A stretch of DNA of 64,000 bases from Spirochaetia bacterium. GTDB lineage: Bacteria > Spirochaetota > Spirochaetia > UBA9216. The stretch is taken from the NCBI GenBank assembly GCA_965140585.1, contig OZ223269.1, positions 864,001-928,000 on the forward strand. Direction: 5' to 3'. The notes under the pieces are model-generated. The model worked only from the letters and a program-made list of their open reading frames with translations, made no database searches and was not told the origin of the DNA. Shown here in pieces: positions 52,643-64,000 of the stretch (position 1 is its first letter; each line of letters opens with the position of its first letter). The position numbers were made by a program, and so were the translations under genes.

Positions 52643-53902
52643 TTAAATATTATCAAGTGGACTTTGTACCCCGAGTTTGTTCTTATTTGTCACATGTGTG
52701 TAGATCATCGTTGTACTAAGATCAGAATGACCAAGAAGTTCCTGAACCGTTCGGATATCATATCCTGATTCTATCAGATTAGTCGCAAAACTGTGTCTGA
52801 GAGAATGTACGCTTGCCTGTTTTGTTATGCCTGCCTGCAATACTGCTGAATGAAAGGCTTTTTGCAATGTGGAAGGATAGATATGAAATCTTCTGATCAC
52901 CTGAGAAAATGGATCAACAGAAAGATGATGAGAAGGAAACACCCAGAACCATATCCAGGATTTAGAAGCATTACTATATTTGGAGGATAAAGCCTGAGGC
53001 ATCATAACGCCTTCACAACCAGAAGAACGATCCTTTTCATAAATCTTCCTTATCCCTTCCAGATGGACTTTAAGTTCTGATATTAGGGATTCGGGAAGCA
53101 ATGTCAACCGATCTTTATTGCCCTTACCAGAGCGGATGTGAATAAACTTTCCGTTAAAATCTATATCCTTTACTCGTAATGAGAGACATTCCTTTAAACG
53201 CATACCACTGCCGAAAATCAGTTTAGACATAAGTTTGTTTGTGCCATCCATGTAACTGAATATCTTAGAAATTTCTTCTATCGTAAGTACTACAGGTAAT
53301 TTGGGATGCCTTTTAGAAAGCTTTATATCCTTAATATTAATTTCATCGATGCTGTATACGCTTCTTGCAAAAAATAGAATAGCGTTGAAAGCCTGCTTTT
53401 GTGTATTTACAGAAATCCGCCTAGTTGAAGCGAGAGTTTGAATATATTTGATAAAATCCTGCTCATAAACATTATCAGGGACAGCATCAGTATGTTTTAT
53501 AAAGTCTTTTACCCACCATTGATATGATTTTTCAGTCTGTAATGATCTATGTTTTAAACGTAGCTGAATTCGGTTTTCCTCAATTTTTGATAACCATTCC
53601 GGCTTAATATCAATAAAATTATTTTGTTCCAATTTGATTTCAATAGAATTGAATTTGAAGTATTTCAGTACAGCATCTTCAGCCTGAATAAGCTGCCAAT
53701 CTTCAAGTTTTGAATCTAATTTAAGGTCATCTATAAAAGTTTTATACGAATAGTCCTCTGACTGTTTCTTTTTTTTAAACGATAAAAATTTACTAACCCA
53801 ATAACAGTAGTATGGGTATACCTTAGCCGGAAGAGAAGTATAGCTTCTGAGATACCCTGTATAAGCATCCAAATTAGCAGATTTATTTTTTGATTCTTTC
53901 AT
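52643..53902 (-). CDS. intI: Integron integrase (tyrosine recombinase) with N-terminal extension
   Basis: [46 protein letters not shown], plus the integron-specific insertion (MP.AL..KY..A..SW.WFWVFPS...DP). Confidence 0.96.
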
Positions 53903-54089
53903 GTATATTTAAACTGCTAAATTTTCTGATTGATTGAAAAATATTTTCAGGTGTATCCTATTATATATAACTTTATAGTTTTTAACGATTTTTTAGAGAT
54001 ATGCGGTATAACATTGCAATAGCGGAGTTATATGGAACTCAGGAACAAGAAATTTGGTTAGTTTAAGAGTTCTGTTATTTTTAAGATAT

Positions 54090-54133
54090 TTTTTTGTTAT
54101 ATAGAAAAATAGGGATCGAATATGTTATGTAGA
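54090..54133 (+). other. attI recombination site; crossover G/TT predicted at 54124-54125
   Basis: GTTATGTAGA at 54124-54133 is the exact reverse complement of TCTACATAAC (55942-55951) at the end of cassette 1. The left boundary is approximate. Confidence 0.7.
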
Positions 54134-54236
54134 ATTTAGGAATGATTATATGTTTTATAACGATTTGTCAATAAAAAAATTTAGATGTGTTATAGAAATT
54201 TATGCTAAAATATAAGAAAAGTGACATGAGGGGAAT

Positions 54237-55940
54237 ATGAAAATTACATGTATTGATAAGGATATAAAGAAAGTTTTAGAGACTGGGTATTTTCATATAC
54301 CGAGGTTTCAAAGGCCATATTCTTGGGAAAAAGAGCATATCGAACAATTTTGGATCGATACAGTAAAAAATCATACTAAAGATTATTTTATTGGGTCGTT
54401 TGTTTTATTTAAGAAAGAAGATGAATTATATGGAATAGTAGATGGTCAACAGAGAATAACCACAATTACATTGATTTTATGTGCTTTACGAGATGCATAT
54501 ATAAAGTATGATTTTGATAATCAAGCTAAAGGTGTTCATAATCTTGTTGAAAAAATAAACTTAGATAATGAGAAACGTTTTATTTTACAGACTGAATCAT
54601 CATATCCGTATTTTCAAGAATATATACAAAAATATGATGACCCAGAAATTGAAGTTGAATTGGGATCCGAGGAGATTAATTTAAAAAAAGCATTTGATCT
54701 AATTAATAAATATATCAAAGAAGATTTGGAGTTAATTAATAAAAATCAACAAATTTCTGATAAGAAAGAAGAAATAGAAAAGCATCTTAGCTTTATAAGA
54801 AATTGTATTCTTAAATTGAATGTAATATATATTGAATTGGATAATGAAGAGAATGCTTATACAGTTTTTGAAACATTAAACACTAGAGGTAAAGAATTAA
54901 ATGTCTCAGATCTCATAAAAAACTATTTATTAAAAAATATCAAATCGAAGAATGTGAAGGTAGATATTGCAAAAGAAAAATGGAATAGAATTAGAGATAA
55001 TATTGATAGAGCAGCTATTAATATTGATATGGATACTTTTATGGTACATCATTGGTTATCTAAGTATGAATATACAACAAAAAAAACATTATTTTCTCGA
55101 GTTGAAGTTGTTATAAAAATTATTGATATACAAAGATATTTAGATGAGTTAGTTAACGATTCTAATATTTATTCTATAATTTATGATCCGGATCTATATA
55201 AATGGAGTAAGAATGAAATTATTCTAAAAGAATCTTTAAATGCGTTGTCCTTATTTAATGTTTCACAACAAACACCAATAATTTTATCAATTTTAAGAGC
55301 TTATCATGAAAAACGCATTACTTTTGCATATGCAAGAGATTTTCTATTATTGATTGAAAAATTTCATTTTATATTTACGGCAATAACATCACAAAGATCT
55401 TCTGGAAGCATTGCTACAATGTATTCAACAATGGCAAGAAAATTATCAAATTCTGGATCAAATAAAGAAACGGCTGATATTTATAAGGAGCTAAAACATC
55501 GACTAATTGCAAAACTTCCCTCATATGATGAATTCCTTGCTAATTTTGTTAAATTACAATATACAGACACTTATAGAAAAGATAAAAAAATAATTCAGTA
55601 TACTTTGAAGAAATTTGATATGTTTTTTAATAAAAGAGGATCACCTATAAATTATGATCTTATGACTATAGAGCATATTTCGCCTCAAAATCCTAAAGAA
55701 AAATATGATATTAATTATGATGATTCTATGGGTGCAATTGGGAATTTGCTTCTCACTGATGCAAATTTAAATGGAAAATTGAAGAATAAAAAATTTAGTG
55801 ATAAAAAAGAACTTCTTTTGAAAACGTCTATCAATATTGATGAAATAATAATTAATAGTATTGAATGGAACAACGAGAAAATACAAGAAAGAACTTTGTT
55901 TATATCTAAAAAATTATATGAAAATGTATTTAGATTATAA
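54237..55940 (+). CDS. Cassette 1: DUF262 + DUF1524 (HNH) protein, GmrSD/SspE-like restriction-type nuclease
   Basis: IPRFQRPYSW, VDGQQRITT, FETLNTRG and C-terminal EHISPQ...GNLLL...N...N. Confidence 0.9.
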   Translation: MKITCIDKDIKKVLETGYFHIPRFQRPYSWEKEHIEQFWIDTVKNHTKDYFIGSFVLFKKEDELYGIVDGQQRITTITLILCALRDAYIKYDFDNQAKGVHNLVEKINLDNEKRFILQTESSYPYFQEYIQKYDDPEIEVELGSEEINLKKAFDLINKYIKEDLELINKNQQISDKKEEIEKHLSFIRNCILKLNVIYIELDNEENAYTVFETLNTRGKELNVSDLIKNYLLKNIKSKNVKVDIAKEKWNRIRDNIDRAAINIDMDTFMVHHWLSKYEYTTKKTLFSRVEVVIKIIDIQRYLDELVNDSNIYSIIYDPDLYKWSKNEIILKESLNALSLFNVSQQTPIILSILRAYHEKRITFAYARDFLLLIEKFHFIFTAITSQRSSGSIATMYSTMARKLSNSGSNKETADIYKELKHRLIAKLPSYDEFLANFVKLQYTDTYRKDKKIIQYTLKKFDMFFNKRGSPINYDLMTIEHISPQNPKEKYDINYDDSMGAIGNLLLTDANLNGKLKNKKFSDKKELLLKTSINIDEIIINSIEWNNEKIQERTLFISKKLYENVFRL

Positions 55941-55944
55941 ATCT

Positions 55945-56080
55945 ACATAACAAGAGATTTGGAGTAGTCAAAATTTATTGTCACGATTCTGGCTAAAGAC
56001 GTTCGCTGATCGCTCACTCCAGAATCGCGCCAATTCGGCGAAGACGCCGATCAATTTTGCTACTCAAATCGTCGTTCTAC
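55945..56080 (+). repeat. attC site 1
   Basis: R'' ACATAAC; GATTTGGAGTAG / CTACTCAAATC arms with one extra G; R' GTTCTAC; 136 bp. Confidence 0.93.
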
Positions 56081-56210
56081 AGAACAATATAGTTAGTGAC
56101 AACAACAATAAAATAAGTAGATGCAATTAAGGTAAAAAGTTCACTGGTAGCTGGTCATTTGGGGATAAACCTCCGGTGGAAGATTTATTTTGTGGCTATA
56201 AATTTGGAAA

Positions 56211-56260
56211 TAGACAATAATTGAATTATATAGTACATTTAACGTGCGTTATAGCGTACG
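56211..56260 (+). promoter_or_regulatory. TA cassette promoter/operator
   Basis: TAGACA-N17-TACATT overlapped by GTAC/GTGC/GTAC cores spaced 11 and 12 bp, resembling YefM-family operators. Confidence 0.6.
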
Positions 56261-56268
56261 GAGGTTTT

Positions 56269-56511
56269 ATGAGTTCTATAAACATTACAAATGCGAGAAA
56301 AGACCTATACAGAATTGTTGAATCAGTCAATTTATCACATGAACCAATTCATATAACTGGAAAAAATAATTCCGCTGTTCTAATTGGGGAAGAGGATTGG
56401 AAGAGTATTGAAGAAACACTTTACTTAATGTCTATTCCAGGAATGAGAGAATCTATAGTAGATGGAATGAATTCACCTATAGATGATTTAGAAGAGGATC
56501 TGGATTGGTAA
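56269..56511 (+). CDS. yefM: Cassette 2: Phd/YefM family antitoxin
   Basis: NITNARKDLY, PIHIT, AVLI.EEDW.SI.ETLYL..IPGM; ATG 56269 after GGAGG. Confidence 0.93.
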   Translation: MSSINITNARKDLYRIVESVNLSHEPIHITGKNNSAVLIGEEDWKSIEETLYLMSIPGMRESIVDGMNSPIDDLEEDLDW

Positions 56512-56772
56512 ATGTATCGATTACTCTATACAAAACAAGCTAAAAGAGACGCTAAGAAACTATCAGAAAGTAATCTTAAAAGAAAAACCCAAGAATTATT
56601 AGACATAATAAAAATAGATCCATTTCAAAATCCACCACCATATGAAAAATTAATTGGAGATTTAACTGGAGCCTATTCTATACGCATAAATATCCAGCAT
56701 CGACTTGTATACCAAGTTATTAATGACGAACATATTGTAAAAATATTAAGAATGTGGACACATTATGAATAA
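56512..56772 (+). CDS. yoeB: Cassette 2: Txe/YoeB family toxin
   Basis: P.EKL.GDL.G.YS.RINIQHRLVY and terminal HYE. Confidence 0.94.
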   Translation: MYRLLYTKQAKRDAKKLSESNLKRKTQELLDIIKIDPFQNPPPYEKLIGDLTGAYSIRINIQHRLVYQVINDEHIVKILRMWTHYE

Positions 56773-56781
56773 TATATGTCT

Positions 56782-56919
56782 GTAGAACAAGCAGTTGCAA
56801 CAGTCTTAGCTATTGTCAAGGTTCTGGCTGAGACGTTTCGCGCTGATGCGCTACACTCCAGAACCTCGCCAATGCGTGTGAAAACACACGCCGCTAAGCT
56901 GCTGAACTGGTCGTTATGT
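56782..56919 (+). repeat. attC site 2 (divergent arms)
   Basis: R'' GTAGAAC; CAGTTGCAACAGTCTTAGC / GCTAAGCTGCTGAACTG arms; R' GTTATGT; 138 bp. Confidence 0.9.
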
Positions 56920-57041
56920 TTAACATTTTATAGAGTAAATAGTAATGGGATGAAAAATCTTTAATTGATTGAATAGAATTTAAGAGATTGATACCCTATA
57001 AAAGTATTTTTATATATTGAATAAATAGTAGGATGGAGATA

Positions 57042-57827
57042 ATGAAAAAGAAATTAATAATAGCATTATGCTTTTTTATGGTTGTAATATCAGTATATTC
57101 GCAAGAAAGATATGAAATACTTGTTTCTGAACCAGAAATCGATAAGAAGTTAGTTTTAGATGATTATTATCTGTGTCGAAATATATATTTTGATTTCTTT
57201 GTTTCTTTAAAAATTGATGATGAATTATCAATTAATGATACGAAGACCTTATTTAAAAAGATAATTGAGAATACATGCGAAACAAGACAACAAGAGATAA
57301 CAATCAACGGGAAAGAAAGAATATTTATCAGGATAAAACCAATTATTATTAATAATCAAGAAAATTTAGTTGTATACTCAAATTATAATGTTAAAACTAA
57401 ATTATTTGAAAAGGATTTTGAACAATTAAAAGACTTATATGCAAAAAGGTATATGATAGTAAATGATAAGATCATTGATGCAAAGAAGATCCTTGATGAT
57501 ATTGAAGAAAGAAAACTAATAGACGATTGGAAAAACACAAACCAATATAATAAGATCGCTGATCATCTAATAAACTATTCAGTTAATGATAATATTCAAG
57601 ATATTATTACTACATTAAATATGGGAATTAATAATAATTCTAATACAATTGAAGATACGTTATTACTGAATTTTAGTTATTTAGAATATTTTTTAAAAAT
57701 GAAAGAATACAAAGATTTTGAAAACAAAATATATGAAATTGGTGTGGTTGATGGCGATTCTGATTTTATTCAAGATATCATTAGAAATTTTGATAGATTA
57801 AAGCAAATTTTAGTTGGAATAGAATAA
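57042..57827 (+). CDS. Cassette 3: secreted hypothetical protein
   Basis: Signal peptide MKKKLIIALCFFMVVISVYSQ after GGAG (alternative ATG 57033); no family recognised. Confidence 0.75.
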   Translation: MKKKLIIALCFFMVVISVYSQERYEILVSEPEIDKKLVLDDYYLCRNIYFDFFVSLKIDDELSINDTKTLFKKIIENTCETRQQEITINGKERIFIRIKPIIINNQENLVVYSNYNVKTKLFEKDFEQLKDLYAKRYMIVNDKIIDAKKILDDIEERKLIDDWKNTNQYNKIADHLINYSVNDNIQDIITTLNMGINNNSNTIEDTLLLNFSYLEYFLKMKEYKDFENKIYEIGVVDGDSDFIQDIIRNFDRLKQILVGIE

Positions 57828-57847
57828 CTATTAAAAGAATTATGTAA

Positions 57848-57985
57848 ACATAACATGAGATTTGGAGTAGTCAAAATCTTTGTCACAGTTCTGGCGGAGA
57901 CACTCCGCGCTGATCGCGCTGCGTTCCAGAACTGCGCCAAGCCTCGAAGACTCGGCCGATTTCGCTACTCAAATCGTCGTTATAT
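57848..57985 (+). repeat. attC site 3
   Basis: ACATAAC...GTTATAT; same arms as attC1; 138 bp. Confidence 0.93.
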
Positions 57986-58122
57986 TCAATAAAGGTAACG
58001 GCCGGTAACTTGGTCAACACATTTCTAATAGATTAGTGTACAGCAGCGATTTATTAAGAAAAAGAGATTAGATTAGCTCCTGATTAAAATAATACGCCTA
58101 AAAGAGTTATAAGATTAAAGGA

Positions 58123-58217
58123 ACTTATTGATTTTCCATTTCATTACAAATCAATAAGTCTTTATATTCTAATGACTTAGCTAACAATTGTCTATTTAAA
58201 GATGCGAATGATAGAAT
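58123..58217 (+). promoter_or_regulatory. Cassette 4 palindrome + promoter module
   Basis: 12-bp inverted repeat ACTTATTGATTT-N13-AAATCAATAAGT, then TTGTCT-N18-TAGAAT with TG extension. Confidence 0.6.
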
Positions 58218-58416
58218 TATTTATAAAATATAGTTCCCAGGGGCTGAAAACAGCCTTAAAATGGTAAAATACAGAAAATTGTGTACACGTAGTTATTAGA
58301 AATTTGTATACAAAGCTCGGTCTGAACATAAATTGTGTTTTAATTAAATATTTGTAGGAGAAGTTGCTAATTTAATGGTATAAGTAAATAATATTATAAA
58401 ATTAAGGATTTAAGAA

Positions 58417-59130
58417 ATGAATGAAGTTGCAAAAATTATTTTAAAAAACAAAAATATTTTATTGATTTTAATCTCAATTATTCTATTGGTGATTTTAAAT
58501 TCTCTTAAAGATGTATTTTTTAGTGGTGAATTTTATGAAAGAACTAATAGATACATCAGCTGGATACTGGATCTCTTAATTATAATACAAAAAATTAAGT
58601 TGATTAAACATATATATAAAGATTTGATAGATGAAAATTATAGAGCTAATTTGAATATCAAGAGGGCTATAATAAATTACATAAGTTCAAATTTGGCAAT
58701 TGCAATACAAATGTTTCCATTTATTATAGGGTTTGTAGTAATCGAGTTGTTTAAAAGAAACTCTATTATTAATTTTAGTAATGAAAAAAATGATTTAATT
58801 TTTTTAATTGTTACGACTCCATACCTATATTTATTTATCTTTACTTTAGTGATAGCGTCAGTTGAAGATATAGGATGGTTTCCTAATACAAAAAGTTCAT
58901 TCATGTTTATTAGAGAAAATAATGGTGAACTGTATAAATTGATAATTATATATTTGTTTCCACAAGTAATATTATATATATCAAATGCTTTTCTTCCTTT
59001 AGATAATCAAGAATATATTTTATATAAATCTTTAATTGAAGTTGTTAAGATATTAATTTTCCCGGCATTATGTTATAAATATTTTGTAATTAATTTTAAG
59101 AATAAAAAACTTTTAATCAATAATATGTGA
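58417..59130 (+). CDS. Cassette 4: multi-pass membrane protein of unknown function
   Basis: About 5-6 hydrophobic segments; E..G.....KSS pattern loosely recalling DUF975/YciC-like membrane proteins. Confidence 0.7.
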   Translation: MNEVAKIILKNKNILLILISIILLVILNSLKDVFFSGEFYERTNRYISWILDLLIIIQKIKLIKHIYKDLIDENYRANLNIKRAIINYISSNLAIAIQMFPFIIGFVVIELFKRNSIINFSNEKNDLIFLIVTTPYLYLFIFTLVIASVEDIGWFPNTKSSFMFIRENNGELYKLIIIYLFPQVILYISNAFLPLDNQEYILYKSLIEVVKILIFPALCYKYFVINFKNKKLLINNM

Positions 59131-59145
59131 TATTAATAAAATTGA

Positions 59146-59284
59146 ATATAACAAGAGATTTGGAGTAGTCAAAACCTTTGTCACAGTTCTGGCTAAAGAC
59201 ACTCCGCGCTGATCGCGCTGCGTTCCAGAACTGCGCCAAGCCTCGAAGACTCGGCCGGTTTCGCTACTCAAATCGTCGTTATAT
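59146..59284 (+). repeat. attC site 4
   Basis: ATATAAC...GTTATAT; near-identical to attC3; 139 bp. Confidence 0.93.
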
Positions 59285-59412
59285 TTATTCACAGGGACGA
59301 GCATACATCTTTGCGTATAGATACTGAATAAGTAGGTAACCTAAGAATAGTAGATAGAATTTAATCAGATTTTATAAATAATTTGGATGTAAAGAAATTG
59401 TAAAATATGGAA

Positions 59413-59506
59413 ACTTAATGATTTTCTATTACATAGAAAATCATTAACTAAATATCTTTTAAAGAATTATTAAGATTTGCCAATATGAATGTTTGCATGA
59501 TAAAAT
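59413..59506 (+). promoter_or_regulatory. Cassette 5 palindrome + promoter module
   Basis: 15-bp inverted repeat TTAATGATTTTCTAT-tac-ATAGAAAATCATTAA, then TTGCCA-N18-TAAAAT with TG extension. Confidence 0.6.
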
Positions 59507-59617
59507 TAAAAAGATTAGCAAAAGATATATGGGGACAGTAGAAAAAGTGAAAATATTTTTTAACATAATAATTAGAATTATGCAATCAATACCCCTTTGG
59601 ATCAGTAGGACTATAAG

Positions 59618-60580
59618 ATGATTGAGATAAAAAGTATTGAACAGGATATGTTGAATGAATTATTTAATTCGAATATAAGACCAAGAATTCAACTAAATAA
59701 GAACGATGTGTATTCAGTTAAATTCTCAGATGATGAATTAGTAAAAATTAAAGAAATAGAAAAATCATATCATACAGTAGTTGGGATTGATATTTATCAA
59801 TATAGTCTTTTCCCGATAAAAAAACAAATCTTCATACCACATCTATTTAAATTAATATATGATGCTACTTGGGAAATGATTGTAGAGAATTATGAGTTTA
59901 TATTTCAAAATTATAAATGGATAAAGCATCCTGATGATAATTTAATGAAATATGAAGATTATTTTATAGATACAGGGGATGGAGGATTTCAAATTCTTGA
60001 AAGTCCATTACATGGTATTATTTTTATATTAACTTTTTCGACTATTTTAAGATTATATAATTCTGATTTATTCATGAGAAAATTGTATGCGAAAATAGGT
60101 AAAATTGAATTACGATATTCAATGACTTTTGATAATCTATATAGATACAATAATAATTATTATGGTACCGCGATCATTAATAATTCTAGAATTTTGGGAA
60201 AGGATAAATTAAATCGATTTTTAATAGATAGCAATACTTATGATTGGTTTTTAGATAGAATGATAGGGATTGAGAATCTAATGTCATTAGGCCTAAATAA
60301 TATAAAAGAAATTGAAGAATTTAAAAATTATGATTTTGACAGGATCCATACAATGCAAAATGCTCTTATCCCAGAGGAATTTAATAAAATAAATAAAGAA
60401 GGTATAAAATCAATAGATGTTCAAAAGATAGGAAAGATTCTACAAAAAAAGACTTATTTAGATATTTATAATGTACATATCCAGGCTGTTATTCAATATA
60501 TCAATTTATTTAAATATGAAAAAATAATTACCATATCTGTTGGAAATCTAAATATCAGCGGTATTGAAGGCTTGGAGTAG
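59618..60580 (+). CDS. Cassette 5: divergent class III nucleotidyl-cyclase-like protein
   Basis: VVGIDIYQYS (first metal Asp), DTGDGG (second Asp), LRYS, and YYGTAIINNSRIL matching the G..N.AAR helix. Confidence 0.65.
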   Translation: MIEIKSIEQDMLNELFNSNIRPRIQLNKNDVYSVKFSDDELVKIKEIEKSYHTVVGIDIYQYSLFPIKKQIFIPHLFKLIYDATWEMIVENYEFIFQNYKWIKHPDDNLMKYEDYFIDTGDGGFQILESPLHGIIFILTFSTILRLYNSDLFMRKLYAKIGKIELRYSMTFDNLYRYNNNYYGTAIINNSRILGKDKLNRFLIDSNTYDWFLDRMIGIENLMSLGLNNIKEIEEFKNYDFDRIHTMQNALIPEEFNKINKEGIKSIDVQKIGKILQKKTYLDIYNVHIQAVIQYINLFKYEKIITISVGNLNISGIEGLE

Positions 60581-60604
60581 AAAGATTATTAAGAAATATG
60601 AAAA

Positions 60605-60742
60605 ATATAACAAAAGATTTGGAGTAGTCAAAATCTTTGTCACAGTTCTGGCAGAGACACTTCGCGCTGATCGCGCTGCGTTCCAGAACTGCGCCAAGCC
60701 TCGAAGACTCGGCCGATTTTGCTACTCAAATCGTCGTTACAT
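60605..60742 (+). repeat. attC site 5
   Basis: ATATAAC...GTTACAT; near-identical to attC3/4; 138 bp. Confidence 0.93.
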
Positions 60743-60771
60743 GGAAATCGGAAAGCGGAGATGAAATAGTT

Positions 60772-62109
60772 ATGAGAATTATGGAATTCTATGAAAATGA
60801 AATGAAAACACTATCTGATTTCGAAATAGTAGAAGAAAGAAATAATTATTACCAATGCTTTTATAAGTCTCACAATGACGATAAAAAAGTTAATATATTG
60901 AGCATCGATATTAATGACAATTGCTTCATATTCTACCCTAAGAATACAATTCCCAGTAGTAGTAACTATTTAAAGCAGAAATACGATAAAATTTATACAA
61001 TAGTTCTGTATTCAGATTTCACATCTTGGAAAAACATAAATATTGAGACACTTCTCCAAAAACTAGAAGAGCTACCACGAGGATTCATAAAAGACTATTC
61101 ATATGGGTTTGGTCTACTAAAGGATTATCGCTTTGTTATTCATGAAATAGAATCTCAGTTAGATGTGAAATGTATCATCTTTACGGATAATAAAACTGAA
61201 TATAATGAGAATGCTTTTATATTCAATTTGGATGATTTTGATACGATAAGAAGAATGATTGATCGAATAAATGATAAACATCAGGAAAATAGTAGAAATG
61301 AAAAGCAGATATCCACTTACAATGCATTATTCCCTAATCTACCACCCAAAAAAGAAGAATATAAAGAAGATGTGATCTATAAATTTTTAAGAAATAAGAA
61401 ATCTCCCGAAGGTATATCAATAAAAGATCAACAAGTATTACTAGATTATTTAGTTATAAGCGCTGAAGATATTATTAAAAACAAGCCTCAAGCTCTATCT
61501 GAACTTAAAGAAGAAATAGATGCATATGGAATTATTTATTTCAAAGAATTATTTGAGAAACTGTATAATGAAAATGCAAAAGAAAATAGATGGCAAGCTT
61601 TACTTAATGAGCATTCATATATCTTCACTTTGATTGTTGGATCTCCTGTAATAAATCTATATGAACAAGTTCCGGTAGGTGGTAGAGATTTAGAAGGGAA
61701 AAATACAAGTATTGTAGATTTCTTAAATAAGAATCCTTTTACAAATAATTTATCTATAATAGAAATAAAGACACCAAAGAAGAAATTATTAAACAAAACA
61801 GAATATAGGCACTCTGTTTATTCTCCTTCAAATGAATTAGCTGGATCAATAAACCAACTCTTAGATCAAAAGAATAAGCTACAAAAGGAAATAACTACGT
61901 TAAAAGTTAATTCTGGGGTCTATGACATTGAAACATATCATATTGAATGCTTATTAATAATTGGACTGACACCAGAATCTGATGCAGAAAAGAAATCATT
62001 TGAATTATTTAGACATGCGATTAAAGATATAAAAATAATAACATTTGATGAATTACTGGATATAATAAAGAATATAGTATTGATTATTGAAAATGCAAAG
62101 AGAGAATAA
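60772..62109 (+). CDS. sduA: Cassette 6: Shedu anti-phage nuclease (DUF4263, PD-(D/E)xK)
   Basis: E..WQ..L, VDFL, IIEIKTP, EL.GSINQ, LIIG, IITFDELL; start moved to 60772 because the ORF-track start lies inside attC5. Confidence 0.88.
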   Translation: MRIMEFYENEMKTLSDFEIVEERNNYYQCFYKSHNDDKKVNILSIDINDNCFIFYPKNTIPSSSNYLKQKYDKIYTIVLYSDFTSWKNINIETLLQKLEELPRGFIKDYSYGFGLLKDYRFVIHEIESQLDVKCIIFTDNKTEYNENAFIFNLDDFDTIRRMIDRINDKHQENSRNEKQISTYNALFPNLPPKKEEYKEDVIYKFLRNKKSPEGISIKDQQVLLDYLVISAEDIIKNKPQALSELKEEIDAYGIIYFKELFEKLYNENAKENRWQALLNEHSYIFTLIVGSPVINLYEQVPVGGRDLEGKNTSIVDFLNKNPFTNNLSIIEIKTPKKKLLNKTEYRHSVYSPSNELAGSINQLLDQKNKLQKEITTLKVNSGVYDIETYHIECLLIIGLTPESDAEKKSFELFRHAIKDIKIITFDELLDIIKNIVLIIENAKRE

Positions 62110-62114
62110 AATCC

Positions 62115-62220
62115 ATGTAACAAGCGCATGCAACTGACAATTTTTTTGTCACCCTTTTTGAATGCTCAAAAAGGTCGCCAACCCTTCGGGACAAAATTGC
62201 AGCTGATGCGGGCGTTATGT
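62115..62220 (+). repeat. attC site 6 (short, different sequence family)
   Basis: R'' ATGTAAC; CGCATGCAACTGACAATTTT / AAAATTGCAGCTGATGCG arms; R' GTTATGT; 106 bp. Confidence 0.9.
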
Positions 62221-62275
62221 ACACAAAATTTGGGTTTTAAAAGCCTTTATAAACTGAATTAAAGAGAGGGTTATA

Positions 62276-63385
62276 ATGAGTAAAAGTAAAGATGTCTTTT
62301 TTCTTGGTGCGGGTTTTTCTAAGGGGGTTGGTGCGCCATTACAAGCTGAGATTCTATATAAAATTCTAAATCTAAATACAGCTAATATACAATATGAAAA
62401 AAGGCCAATATTTGTTGAGAATGTCGATAGAATAAGAAAACTTTTAACTGAGATTATGTATTTAGATATAACTGATAAAGAATTATTAATTGATTTGGAA
62501 GATGTATTTACTCCTCTTGATGCATGCATTAGTAATAACTATTCATTCAGAAATCTTTCAATAAATGATGTGATTGAATATAGGAAATCCTTAGATGTTA
62601 TACTTTCTATGTTTATGGAATATGAATTGGAATATTTAGATATTAGAAGTTCATACATACAGAAGATAGCAGACTACGTAGTTGAACAAAAAGTTGTTAG
62701 ACCTAAGAGTGATAAAGTATCTTTTATTACAACAAACTGGGATATAATATTGGATAATGCAATTTATAGGTCAATTAATAAGCAAAATTTAAAAAATGGA
62801 GTAATAGATTATTGTTGCCATACTACTCAATATGATACAGAAGATAAAATAATGCCGTCTCTGTTAGCGAAAGGAAAAGGATATTATAATGTTAAAATCT
62901 TGAAATTACATGGATCTTTAAATTGGTTGTTTTGTCCTAGATGTAATAGGTTATATACGAAGTTTTATAAAAAAATTTCAACTCATGAGTTTATAAAACG
63001 ACCAGTGTGTAGAATATGTGATAAAAATTTTAGAAATACAAATAGCAATGATCAAGGCCCTATGCTTACGGGGCAATTATTGATGCCAACATATATGAAA
63101 GATTTATCAAATGTGCAATTCAAAATGATATGGCAAAAAGCAAATATTGAATTGTCAGAAGCAAAAAAGATTATTTTTATTGGCTATTCATTTCCTATGG
63201 CCGATTTTGAAATTAGACAATTATTATCTAGAAATGTTCCTCATGATACTGAAATAGAAGTAGTATTAAAGGGCAATAATAAAGAAATTGAAAGAAGATA
63301 TCGAAGTTTTTTTGGAAGGCGAAATATTAATTTTAATATAGAAGGTGCTGAAAAATACATTGAAGAATATATTGAAAGTAATTGA
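62276..63385 (+). CDS. Cassette 7: SIR2-like (SIR2_2-type) protein with zinc-binding insert
   Basis: FFLGAGFS, ITTNWD, KLHGSLNW, CPRC...CRIC, FIGYSF...D. Confidence 0.88.
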   Translation: MSKSKDVFFLGAGFSKGVGAPLQAEILYKILNLNTANIQYEKRPIFVENVDRIRKLLTEIMYLDITDKELLIDLEDVFTPLDACISNNYSFRNLSINDVIEYRKSLDVILSMFMEYELEYLDIRSSYIQKIADYVVEQKVVRPKSDKVSFITTNWDIILDNAIYRSINKQNLKNGVIDYCCHTTQYDTEDKIMPSLLAKGKGYYNVKILKLHGSLNWLFCPRCNRLYTKFYKKISTHEFIKRPVCRICDKNFRNTNSNDQGPMLTGQLLMPTYMKDLSNVQFKMIWQKANIELSEAKKIIFIGYSFPMADFEIRQLLSRNVPHDTEIEVVLKGNNKEIERRYRSFFGRRNINFNIEGAEKYIEEYIESN

Positions 63386-63392
63386 GATCGGT

Positions 63393-63531
63393 ACATAACA
63401 TGAGATTTGGAGTAGTCAAAATTTATTGTCACGATTCTGGCTAAAGACGTTCGGGCAATGGCCCTCACTCCAGAATCGCGCCAATTCGGCGAAGACGCCG
63501 AACAATTTTGCTACTCAAATCGTCGTTATGC
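63393..63531 (+). repeat. attC site 7
   Basis: ACATAAC...GTTATGC; near-identical to attC1; 139 bp. Confidence 0.93.
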
Positions 63532-63597
63532 CGACGCAAGAAAAATCAAATAATCTTATTGACAAAATATGCTAAATAATTAACTATTTACTTAGTT

Positions 63598-64000
63598 ATG
63601 AGTACGAGAAATAGAGATATTACCAGAGCTAAAATATTAGAGGTCGCTTTAGAAAAATTCTCTGAAAAGGGGTTTAGCGCAGCTACAGTCAAATCAATCG
63701 CTGAGGATGCCCAAGTTAATCAGGCGTTAATCTATTATTATTTTGATAGCAAAAAGAAAATTTTAGAGGAATTAATAGATGATTTTATAGAAACCGCTAA
63801 TAGTTTTTTATATGAAATATTTATAAATGGATATCAATTTGGATCTTCCGAAATGAAAGAACAAATGGAAAAGTACAATGACTTTTTATTAAAGAATGAT
63901 AAAACATTACGGCTTATTTTTACAGAATCATTGAAAGACGAATATGAAATACCTCCCATTTTTAAGCTAATATTATCTGCAAATGAAAGTAACCAGAAGT
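63598..64000 (+). CDS. Cassette 8: TetR/AcrR family transcriptional regulator (3' end outside window)
   Basis: Manual translation MSTRNRDITRAKILEVALEKFSEKGFSAATVKSIAEDAQVNQALIYYYFDSK fits the TetR HTH consensus; absent from the ORF track because it has no stop in the window. Confidence 0.92.
   Translation, partial: MSTRNRDITRAKILEVALEKFSEKGFSAATVKSIAEDAQVNQALIYYYFDSKKKILEELIDDFIETANSFLYEIFINGYQFGSSEMKEQMEKYNDFLLKNDKTLRLIFTESLKDEYEIPPIFKLILSANESNQK

Follow-up and report, generated by a model that had tools for sequence, protein, structure and literature searches.

A predicted promoter shared by two integron cassettes of a Spirochaetia bacterium is probably the cargo of a miniature transposable element inserted beside attC

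The chromosome of a Spirochaetia bacterium (GTDB lineage UBA9216) contains an integron in which two neighboring gene cassettes, here called cassettes 4 and 5, begin with related noncoding leaders that may derive from a small mobile element. The window analyzed is a stretch of 64,000 nucleotides (G000:C6:864001-928000, on contig OZ223269.1), where G000 is the source genome and other G numbers denote compared genomes; positions given without a contig are those of the window. The gene at 52643-53902, on the minus strand, matches the integron integrase model TIGR02249 (E value of 4.1e-113; 377.9 bits against a cut-off of 265) and the Pfam families Phage_integrase and SAM_4. We therefore regard it as intI and the array at its right as an integron. 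The cassettes read rightward from intI, on the plus strand, and GC-rich attC recombination sites of about 125 to 140 nt are found at 55944-56083, 57846-57985, 59145-59284, 60603-60742, and 63392-63534. The array extends past the window as far as roughly C6:966,400; the contig has at least 23 attC motif matches, and the G+C content of the array is 24 to 31% (24 to 28% in the leader region). Crossover at attC takes place between the G and the TT of the R' box. In the attC upstream of cassette 4 (57846-57985, plus strand), which belongs to repeat family D1/D2 and whose conserved 3' motif ends in GTCGTTAT, this point lies between G 57979 and T 57980; in the attC between cassettes 4 and 5 (59145-59284, plus strand), assigned on the same repeat and motif evidence, it lies between G 59278 and T 59279. 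Cassette 4, with gene P0001, thus starts at 57980, and cassette 5, with gene P0002, starts at 59279.

A sequence-only reading of this region had proposed that the two leaders, although placed ahead of unrelated proteins, share a block of about 130 bp made of a palindrome and a promoter. The leaders are indeed alignable: their local alignment scores 50, against 25.1±3.3 (maximum of 42) in dinucleotide-preserving shuffles, and none of 1,000 shuffles reaches that value. A chance resemblance within AT-rich sequence, which the low G+C content of the region might suggest, is thereby refuted, since the score stands well above that of AT-rich shuffled controls, independent profiles recover the match, and multiple further copies exist both in the same genome and in related genomes. 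The two 37-bp palindromes (58123-58159 in cassette 4 and 59413-59449 in cassette 5) are identical at 29 of 37 positions, as had been counted by hand, and start at the 144th and 135th bases of their cassettes. The compensatory swap from a T-A to an A-T pair noted between them is genuine, as the four copies that bear a palindrome split evenly between AU and UA at pair 17/43. Folded as a single strand, the cassette 4 palindrome forms a 12-bp stem with a 13-nt loop (-8.0 kcal/mol; z score of -4.7), and that of cassette 5, which has 15-bp arms, forms a 15-bp stem with a 3-nt loop (-11.1 kcal/mol; z score of -7.9), with none of 200 shuffles folding as well in either case.

Sigma-70-type promoter-like sites of the form TTGYCW-N18-TARAAT, with a TG extension, lie 28 nt (cassette 4) and 27 nt (cassette 5) past the palindromes, at the distances that the sequence-only reading had reported. 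The site of cassette 4 (58188-58217, plus strand; TTGTCT-N18-TAGAAT, with TG at 58209-58210) aims into the cassette gene and has a predicted transcript start near 58224, about 83 nt downstream of the palindrome center; that of cassette 5 (59477-59506, plus strand; TTGCCA-N18-TAAAAT) has a predicted start near 59513. Both have a spacing within the 16 to 18 nt, and the TG one base before the -10 hexamer, that mark an extended -10 promoter of the sigma-70 type, and the transcripts predicted from them would have 5' leaders of about 193 and 105 nt, respectively. Between these two cassettes, demonstrable homology is limited to this core of about 103 to 130 bp, and the remainder of the leaders is not demonstrably related.

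We compared the cassette 4 leader across 11 genomes of the same family, which constitute the entire order as sampled, and found it conserved over about 335 nt rather than 130 nt. To judge from its sequence, this leader is a miniature inverted-repeat transposable element (MITE) of 335 bp at 57994-58328 (group A, plus strand), which begins 14 nt past the crossover and is detected with an E value of 3.2e-73 by a profile built without either window copy. This identification relies on its ends, its core, and its inverted repeats. The ends match those of an insertion sequence (IS) in G010, a genome from another genus, with 22 of 29 positions identical on the left, at the same offset (score of 23 versus 12.6±1.8; 0/300 shuffles), and 32 of 35 on the right (55 versus 12.3±2.3; 0/300 shuffles). 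The core of about 230 nt is unrelated to the interior of the IS, as 91 and 187 of 300 shuffles reach its scores. Finally, the element has a subterminal inverted repeat (score of 31 versus 12.3±2.2; 0/1,000 shuffles), and inverted repeats are also found at the ends of the copies G002_a and G002_b, where 3 of 1,000 shuffles are as good in each case. No transposase gene is present, since the overlapping frames of at least 40 aa are not conserved and an indel puts cassette 4 and G002_a in different frames. The element is flanked by a duplicated 4-nt TAAA, and homology between the copies stops at one and the same base of the element, with different flanks beyond it and unrelated genes downstream. 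Because cassette 4 and its close relatives carry the module within a sharply bounded MITE whose ends match a transposase-bearing IS, the earlier suggestion that the shared leader is a trace of cassette construction does not hold.

The parent IS in G010 was found through two short matches, confined to the right end, that led to transposase genes. It is 1,316 bp long and encodes a 395-aa transposase with the Pfam domains rve, rve_3, HTH_28, and HTH_32, all above their cut-offs. A degraded copy of the same IS, with eight stop codons, is present in the array of G000 itself. Beyond the window, at G000:C6:962359-965552, a single cassette position has accumulated mobile-element remains, namely, IS3-type orfA and orfB, an IstB-like fragment, and the degraded IS481-like transposase with the eight stop codons just mentioned.

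In its own genome, the core occurs three times, namely, in cassette 4, in an identical duplicate at C6:942831, and in cassette 5; a chance look-alike is also present at C4:513155, within a response-regulator gene. Core copies stand ahead of unrelated genes in cassettes 4 and 5, in two cassettes of G002, in two of G010, and in one of G009, with at least five further unrelated genes preceded by copies in the related genomes. G002, a member of the same genus, has a 335-bp copy that is 88% identical, although both the attC type before it and the 339-aa gene after it differ from those of cassette 4; two additional copies in this genome show 75% identity. In G010, the copy G010_a lacks the palindrome and is split by an IS66-like element, so that its right end lies 2.3 kb further on, and the second copy, G010_new, is divergent. 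The G009 copy, G009_a, retains the left palindrome arm only, and contig C2 of G000 holds a 45-nt left-end remnant behind an attC. The IS66-like element itself (G010:C1:4515450-4517765; loci L003 and L163) has matching inverted ends and an 8-bp duplication (GAAATTCT). Searching the genome contigs with a right-end pattern returned 28 loci, of which just four were real and corresponded to the known G002 and G010 records, and the same pattern returned 45 loci on metagenome contigs, none of which matched the MITE profile. A MITE variant with 15 to 17 differences (covering window positions 57992-58263) is present on contigs from sequencing runs X1 and X2 and probably represents another copy or strain from the same study. 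The idea of a reusable regulatory module, put forward from the sequence, is therefore correct as regards reuse, the core being found ahead of unrelated genes; it is not correct as regards a free-standing unit, since in cassette 4 the module is the core of a MITE.

Cassette 4 as a whole has also been copied. A segment of 1,321 identical nucleotides (window positions 57964-59284) recurs 20.7 kb downstream, at G000:C6:942707-944027, and the identity stops at the attC crossovers. Likewise, G002 has one MITE-bearing cassette in two places, the first following attI, at 240 bp from intI, and the second following an attC. Together, the crossover-bounded duplicate in G000 and the attI/attC pair in G002 show, in two separate instances, that cassettes move together with their MITE.

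The position of the element relative to the recombination site is constant. In all six contexts with recognizable ends (cassette 4, G002_a, G002_b/c, G010_a, the C2 remnant, and the G010 IS), its left end lies exactly 14 nt past the G|TT of the R' box, in the same orientation, while the ten bases that follow TTAT differ in each. Outside the family, the nearest relative of the transposase in a 401-genome phylum sample (45% identity), encoded in G327, likewise belongs to an IS located 14 nt past an attC, as does a second, different G327 copy; in the same sample, 27 more distant relatives (at most 42% identity, with one partial match at 46%) have no such context. We then considered a class sample of 401 Spirochaetia genomes, in which 17 loci encode a transposase of at least 43% identity with an intact N terminus; one lies at a contig edge, which leaves 16 evaluable. 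A GTT(A/C), with distances read by eye from the flanks, precedes the left end by 13 to 15 nt at 15 of these 16 loci (8 at 14 nt, 6 at 13 nt, and 1 at 15 nt), and the remaining locus, L195, has no GTT at 13 to 15 nt. The IS relatives, like the parent IS and the MITE, always read in the direction of the cassettes. G437, G596, and G327 each contain identical IS copies whose flanks differ, which indicates separate insertions. An integron integrase above the cut-off is encoded 0.5 to 37 kb from the IS in all five genomes checked, and the attC-like 3' motif is repeated at cassette-like spacing at eight loci. A relative that is 66% identical to the IS (G543:C1:3135089-3135623; locus L186) lies about 530 bp from intI, 14 nt past a GTT that must be that of attI; thus, targeting is not confined to attC. 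Selection for harmless sites cannot yield a precision of ±1 nt, and insertion must therefore be targeted; as for the manner of targeting, we infer guidance by the R' end.

We consider it probable that a small mobile element carries the shared leader as its cargo, the leader being the promoter-bearing core of a MITE able to give silent cassettes a promoter. Several observations weigh against this interpretation, some of which concern the element itself and others cassette 5 and the promoter. The terminal inverted repeats are imperfect, being weak in the IS (21 of 1,000 shuffles as good) and nonsignificant in cassette 5 (496 of 1,000). Target-site duplications are inconsistent: of seven family contexts with both flanks, two show a perfect 4-nt duplication (cassette 4 and G002_b), two match at 3 of 4 positions, and three show none (G010_IS, G010_a, and cassette 5), and among the IS relatives, duplications measure 4 nt at L194 and 3 nt at L188 and L208 and are missing at L189 and L210. 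Conceivably, recombination between copies could have erased such duplications. An empty site is not available for comparison, since neither P0001 nor P0002 has homologs in the other 10 family genomes. The best NCBIfam model for the G010 transposase is that of IS481 (NF033577), with an E value of 1.5e-61 and a score of 208.4 bits that falls below the cut-off of 224. An intact transposase is found in only 1 of the 11 family genomes, and G002, with three MITE copies, lacks a transposase; in that genome, the element would now be movable only with its cassette.

As for cassette 5, its leader contains a putative divergent or decayed element (group B; 59294-59604, plus strand) whose demonstrable homology to the MITE covers 59406-59508 only. 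A profile built without cassette 5 finds matches within this interval when filters are turned off, with genome-wide E values of 2.2e-5 to 3.8e-5 (2.2e-5 for 59409-59508), and does not report cassette 5 under default filters. Profiles of the MITE ends return nothing in cassette 5 (E values of 0.36 and 1.4 on a 339-nt target), the ends of G010_new are similarly unrecognizable, and comparing the ends of cassette 5 and G010_new with those of 56 IS loci gave nothing relevant. BLAST searches with the cassette 5 element against the 401 class genomes returned, outside the family, only short AT-rich matches. Two possible scenarios may explain this pattern. First, the palindrome-plus-promoter core could be an independent module, older than the MITE, that was captured between IS ends and came to cassette 5 in a different way, so that cassette 5 never carried a MITE. 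Such a history would fit a core unrelated to the IS interior, a cassette 5 match confined to the core, and the absence, among the sampled IS, of ends resembling those of cassette 5 or G010_new. Alternatively, cassette 5 may carry a diverged sister of the cassette 4 element. In all three types, a nearly equal distance separates the core from the cassette start (127 nt in cassette 5, 136 nt in cassette 4, and similarly in G010_new), as expected from one layout and not from independent capture. Moreover, the left 70 nt of cassette 5 resemble only G010_new, at the same offset (score of 24 versus 14.7±2.5; 5/1,000 shuffles). No core copy lies outside cassette leaders in the genome, and a search of 321 class genomes with a pattern joining the palindrome and the -10 hexamer gave four matches outside the family, all unrelated by eye. 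A view of cassette 5 as a MITE would therefore draw on the common layout and a single bridging similarity; given the near-equal spacing, a diverged sister element is the most likely explanation, and independent capture seems quite unlikely.

What the core does can be approached through its conservation. Across seven distinct copies, the fraction of the majority base is 0.87 in the -35 hexamer, 0.90 in the TG(A) extension, and 0.93 in the -10 hexamer, compared with 0.68 in the spacer and 0.79 in the whole element. The promoter hexamers are thus the best-conserved part of the core, and the spacer length is constant at 18 nt. We infer that this pattern is the footprint of a promoter that would fire toward the cassette gene. 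Against this, a scan of the AT-rich region gave 64 promoter-like sites versus 73.3±8.2 in shuffles, and thus no enrichment. In the single RNA library, eight short pieces matched the stretch, five of them less than 90% alike, which says nothing on transcription, while the other runs gave DNA-like contigs. Between the module and the cassette gene there is no attC, as attC motif matches fall at cassette borders only.

The sequence-only reading had seen in the module a means of coregulating scattered cassettes. On this view, the palindrome would be central, as an operator or hairpin, and the hexamers would matter only as its target promoter. Palindromy is kept in four copies with one fully compensated pair, and four alignment cells change on both sides, against 1.7±0.8 in shuffles (5/500), although this control is weak because it involves four sequences in related rows. 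The palindrome occurs as two variants joined by the compensated change, its length is fixed at 37 bp despite inner variation, and its spacing to the -35 hexamer is constant at 27 to 28 nt. Yet the palindrome is intact in only four of the seven distinct copies, being deleted in G010_a, half deleted in G009_a, and decayed in G010_new, all of which retain the promoter; it is therefore dispensable for the persistence of the module. In addition, the half-site arrangement is not found at other genomic sites, where a genome-wide search showed no surplus of inverted pairs (12 inverted versus 17 direct and 15 everted). The arms had also been likened to IHF-type sites, a likeness that fails, as the exact consensus WATCAANNNNTTR has no match on either strand of either element and two matches in the 10.1-kb part of the array. 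With its center about 83 nt ahead of the predicted start, the palindrome would be well placed for an upstream activator or architectural site, which we offer as conjecture. On balance, a role of the palindrome as the functional heart of the module appears somewhat unlikely. Elsewhere in the genome, an identical 23-nt palindrome of the ATGATTTTAC...GTAAAATCAT type occurs three times (G000:C4:196939, C4:205715, and C9:354230) and is unrelated to the MITE.

A hairpin could also act as a terminator or insulator against upstream read-through, or the module might encode a small RNA. The stems are stable relative to shuffles, and a short GGCTG/CAGCC hairpin is contained in a conserved block downstream of the -10 hexamer. 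In contrast, the palindromes are not among the seven sites listed by a terminator scan and are not terminator-like, having stems with one or two G-C pairs and no T-run directly after them; no Rfam family matches at an E value of 1 or below within 53900-64000. The short downstream hairpin shows no compensating changes in G002_b or G010_a, and no small reading frame is conserved, given the indel mentioned above. These explanations are very unlikely.

The explanation that we favor, a promoter carried as MITE cargo, would involve several steps. A transposase guided by the R' end of the recombination site would move the MITE in trans from the parent IS. Once inserted, the MITE would ride with its cassette through integrase-mediated recombination, and its promoter would drive transcription of the cassette gene without need of the integron promoter, Pc. 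Cassette 5 would have the same palindrome-plus-promoter core between ends that either have diverged past recognition or come from another IS. The palindrome would be an optional accessory, needed for neither movement nor persistence, to which a dimeric protein would most likely bind upstream of the promoter. A more far-reaching version can be put forward tentatively, although we regard it as rather improbable in its entirety: a Spirochaetia clade of IS481-like IS with DDE transposases would use the R' end of attC or attI as a ruler, either directly or via bound integrase, and insert 13 to 15 nt downstream in one orientation, the transposase riding as the cassette gene. One lineage would then have exchanged its transposase for a palindrome-controlled promoter, yielding a mobile, possibly regulated switch that turns on silent cassettes of a sedentary integron, with MITE-bearing cassettes answering together to one regulator.

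In large chromosomal integrons, most cassettes are generally regarded as silent, except for those close to Pc or with a promoter of their own, and to our knowledge, the origin of cassette promoters is largely unexplained. The MITE suggests a concrete route to such promoters: an element aimed at a safe spot between attC and gene would bring a correctly oriented promoter and then travel with the cassette. As the array holds GmrSD, Shedu, and SIR2-like defenses, promoter delivery could decide which stored defenses are expressed. The Correia elements of Neisseria offer a parallel, as they are MITEs with outward promoters and internal protein-binding sites that insert at many TA sites genome-wide. 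Like them, the element described here is short and nonautonomous, has inverted ends, and would bring a promoter and possibly an architectural-protein site to its neighbors; unlike them, it is confined to one position relative to integron recombination sites.

Other mobile elements are associated with these recombination sites. According to the accessible part of PMC3001079, group IIC-attC introns are retroelements of about 2 kb with a reverse transcriptase, inserted inside the attC bottom strand and antisense to the cassettes, and they carry internal, outward sigma-70-like promoters (Pout) that can express the next cassette independently of Pc. As far as that description goes, both they and the MITE are mobile elements specialized for integron recombination sites with an outward promoter, predicted in our case; the MITE differs as a 335-bp DNA element with DDE-transposon ends that starts 14 nt past the crossover, outside attC, and reads in the direction of the cassettes. 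The IS1111-attC group (ISPa21 and ISPst6), also treated in the portions available of PMC3001079 and named in PMC11187229, has DEDD transposases of the IS110/IS1111 type and inserts within attC near the 5' end, in antisense; the former source suggests a possible outward promoter. The IS described here similarly occupy a defined place and orientation at attC sites, from what these portions report, and differ by their rve (DDE) core nearest to IS481, their insertion beyond the 3' end of the site, 13 to 15 nt from the crossover, their sense orientation, and the existence of a MITE derivative. Promoter-bearing cassettes without genes, which have their own attC, are described in what could be consulted of PMC6557892 and PMC11014356 (bioRxiv 10.1101/2023.11.21.568050). 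Insofar as these sources cover them, they resemble the MITE as noncoding array DNA that supplies promoters and frees downstream genes from their distance to Pc; unlike them, the MITE module lacks its own attC, lies inside a gene-bearing cassette, and has transposon ends.

Our literature searches, which did not include ISfinder or the supplements of papers, found no IS481-type or MITE element aimed at attC. For one Treponema array, the text available of PMC3607928 mentions merely "a few transposases," and that of PMC9137128 holds nothing relevant to elements aimed at attC. As far as we searched, therefore, the MITE-borne portable promoter belongs to a clade of DDE IS, targeted beside attC, that is apparently undescribed. 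Such a clade would add a third, mechanistically different class of mobile element associated with recombination sites, a DDE transposon with a precise offset, beside the IS1111-attC group and the group IIC-attC introns. It also raises a testable question, namely, whether the transposase reads the R' box sequence, the folded site, or the integrase.

Turning to the genes behind the two leaders, P0001 of cassette 4 (58417-59130, plus strand) encodes a 237-aa multipass membrane protein of no known family, with no match in Pfam, PADLOC, or NCBIfam. P0002 of cassette 5 (59618-60580, plus strand) encodes a protein of 320 aa with a predicted class III nucleotidyl-cyclase fold (AlphaFold2 pLDDT of 90.0). 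A Foldseek search with this model gave 60 PDB matches with E values of 0.001 or below, and all those listed are adenylyl or guanylyl cyclases, the best being 5d0g_A (2e-6); there was no match in Pfam or PADLOC, and a PDB sequence search gave nothing useful. Its family comprises 295 uncharacterized proteins from many phyla, with invariant residues that include G56/D58 and G120-D121-G122, and the protein has a beta-rich C-terminal extension. A joint two-gene system formed by cassettes 4 and 5, with a membrane effector and a cyclase, was considered and rejected, as there is no P0001-like neighbor around 16 P0002 homologs in the phylum (best tblastn E value of 1.2) and neither protein has a PADLOC match. 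The loci of these 16 homologs are not cassettes of the MITE-bearing type.

The first cassettes of the array (54237-63385) are rich in defense-type genes. According to Pfam and PADLOC, they encode GmrSD (54237-55940), a Phd/YoeB toxin-antitoxin pair (56221-56772), and a SIR2-like protein (62276-63385), and PADLOC identifies Shedu SduA at 60637-62109 (E value of 4e-124). A 226-nt contig from an oligo-dT RNA library of sediment (X22) matches the attC at 59150-59283 with two differences and shows neither transcription nor origin. Motifs of the attC type also occur on the G000 contigs C2 (about 372849-375814), C9 (about 71532-89866), and C5, where they may represent small extra attC clusters.

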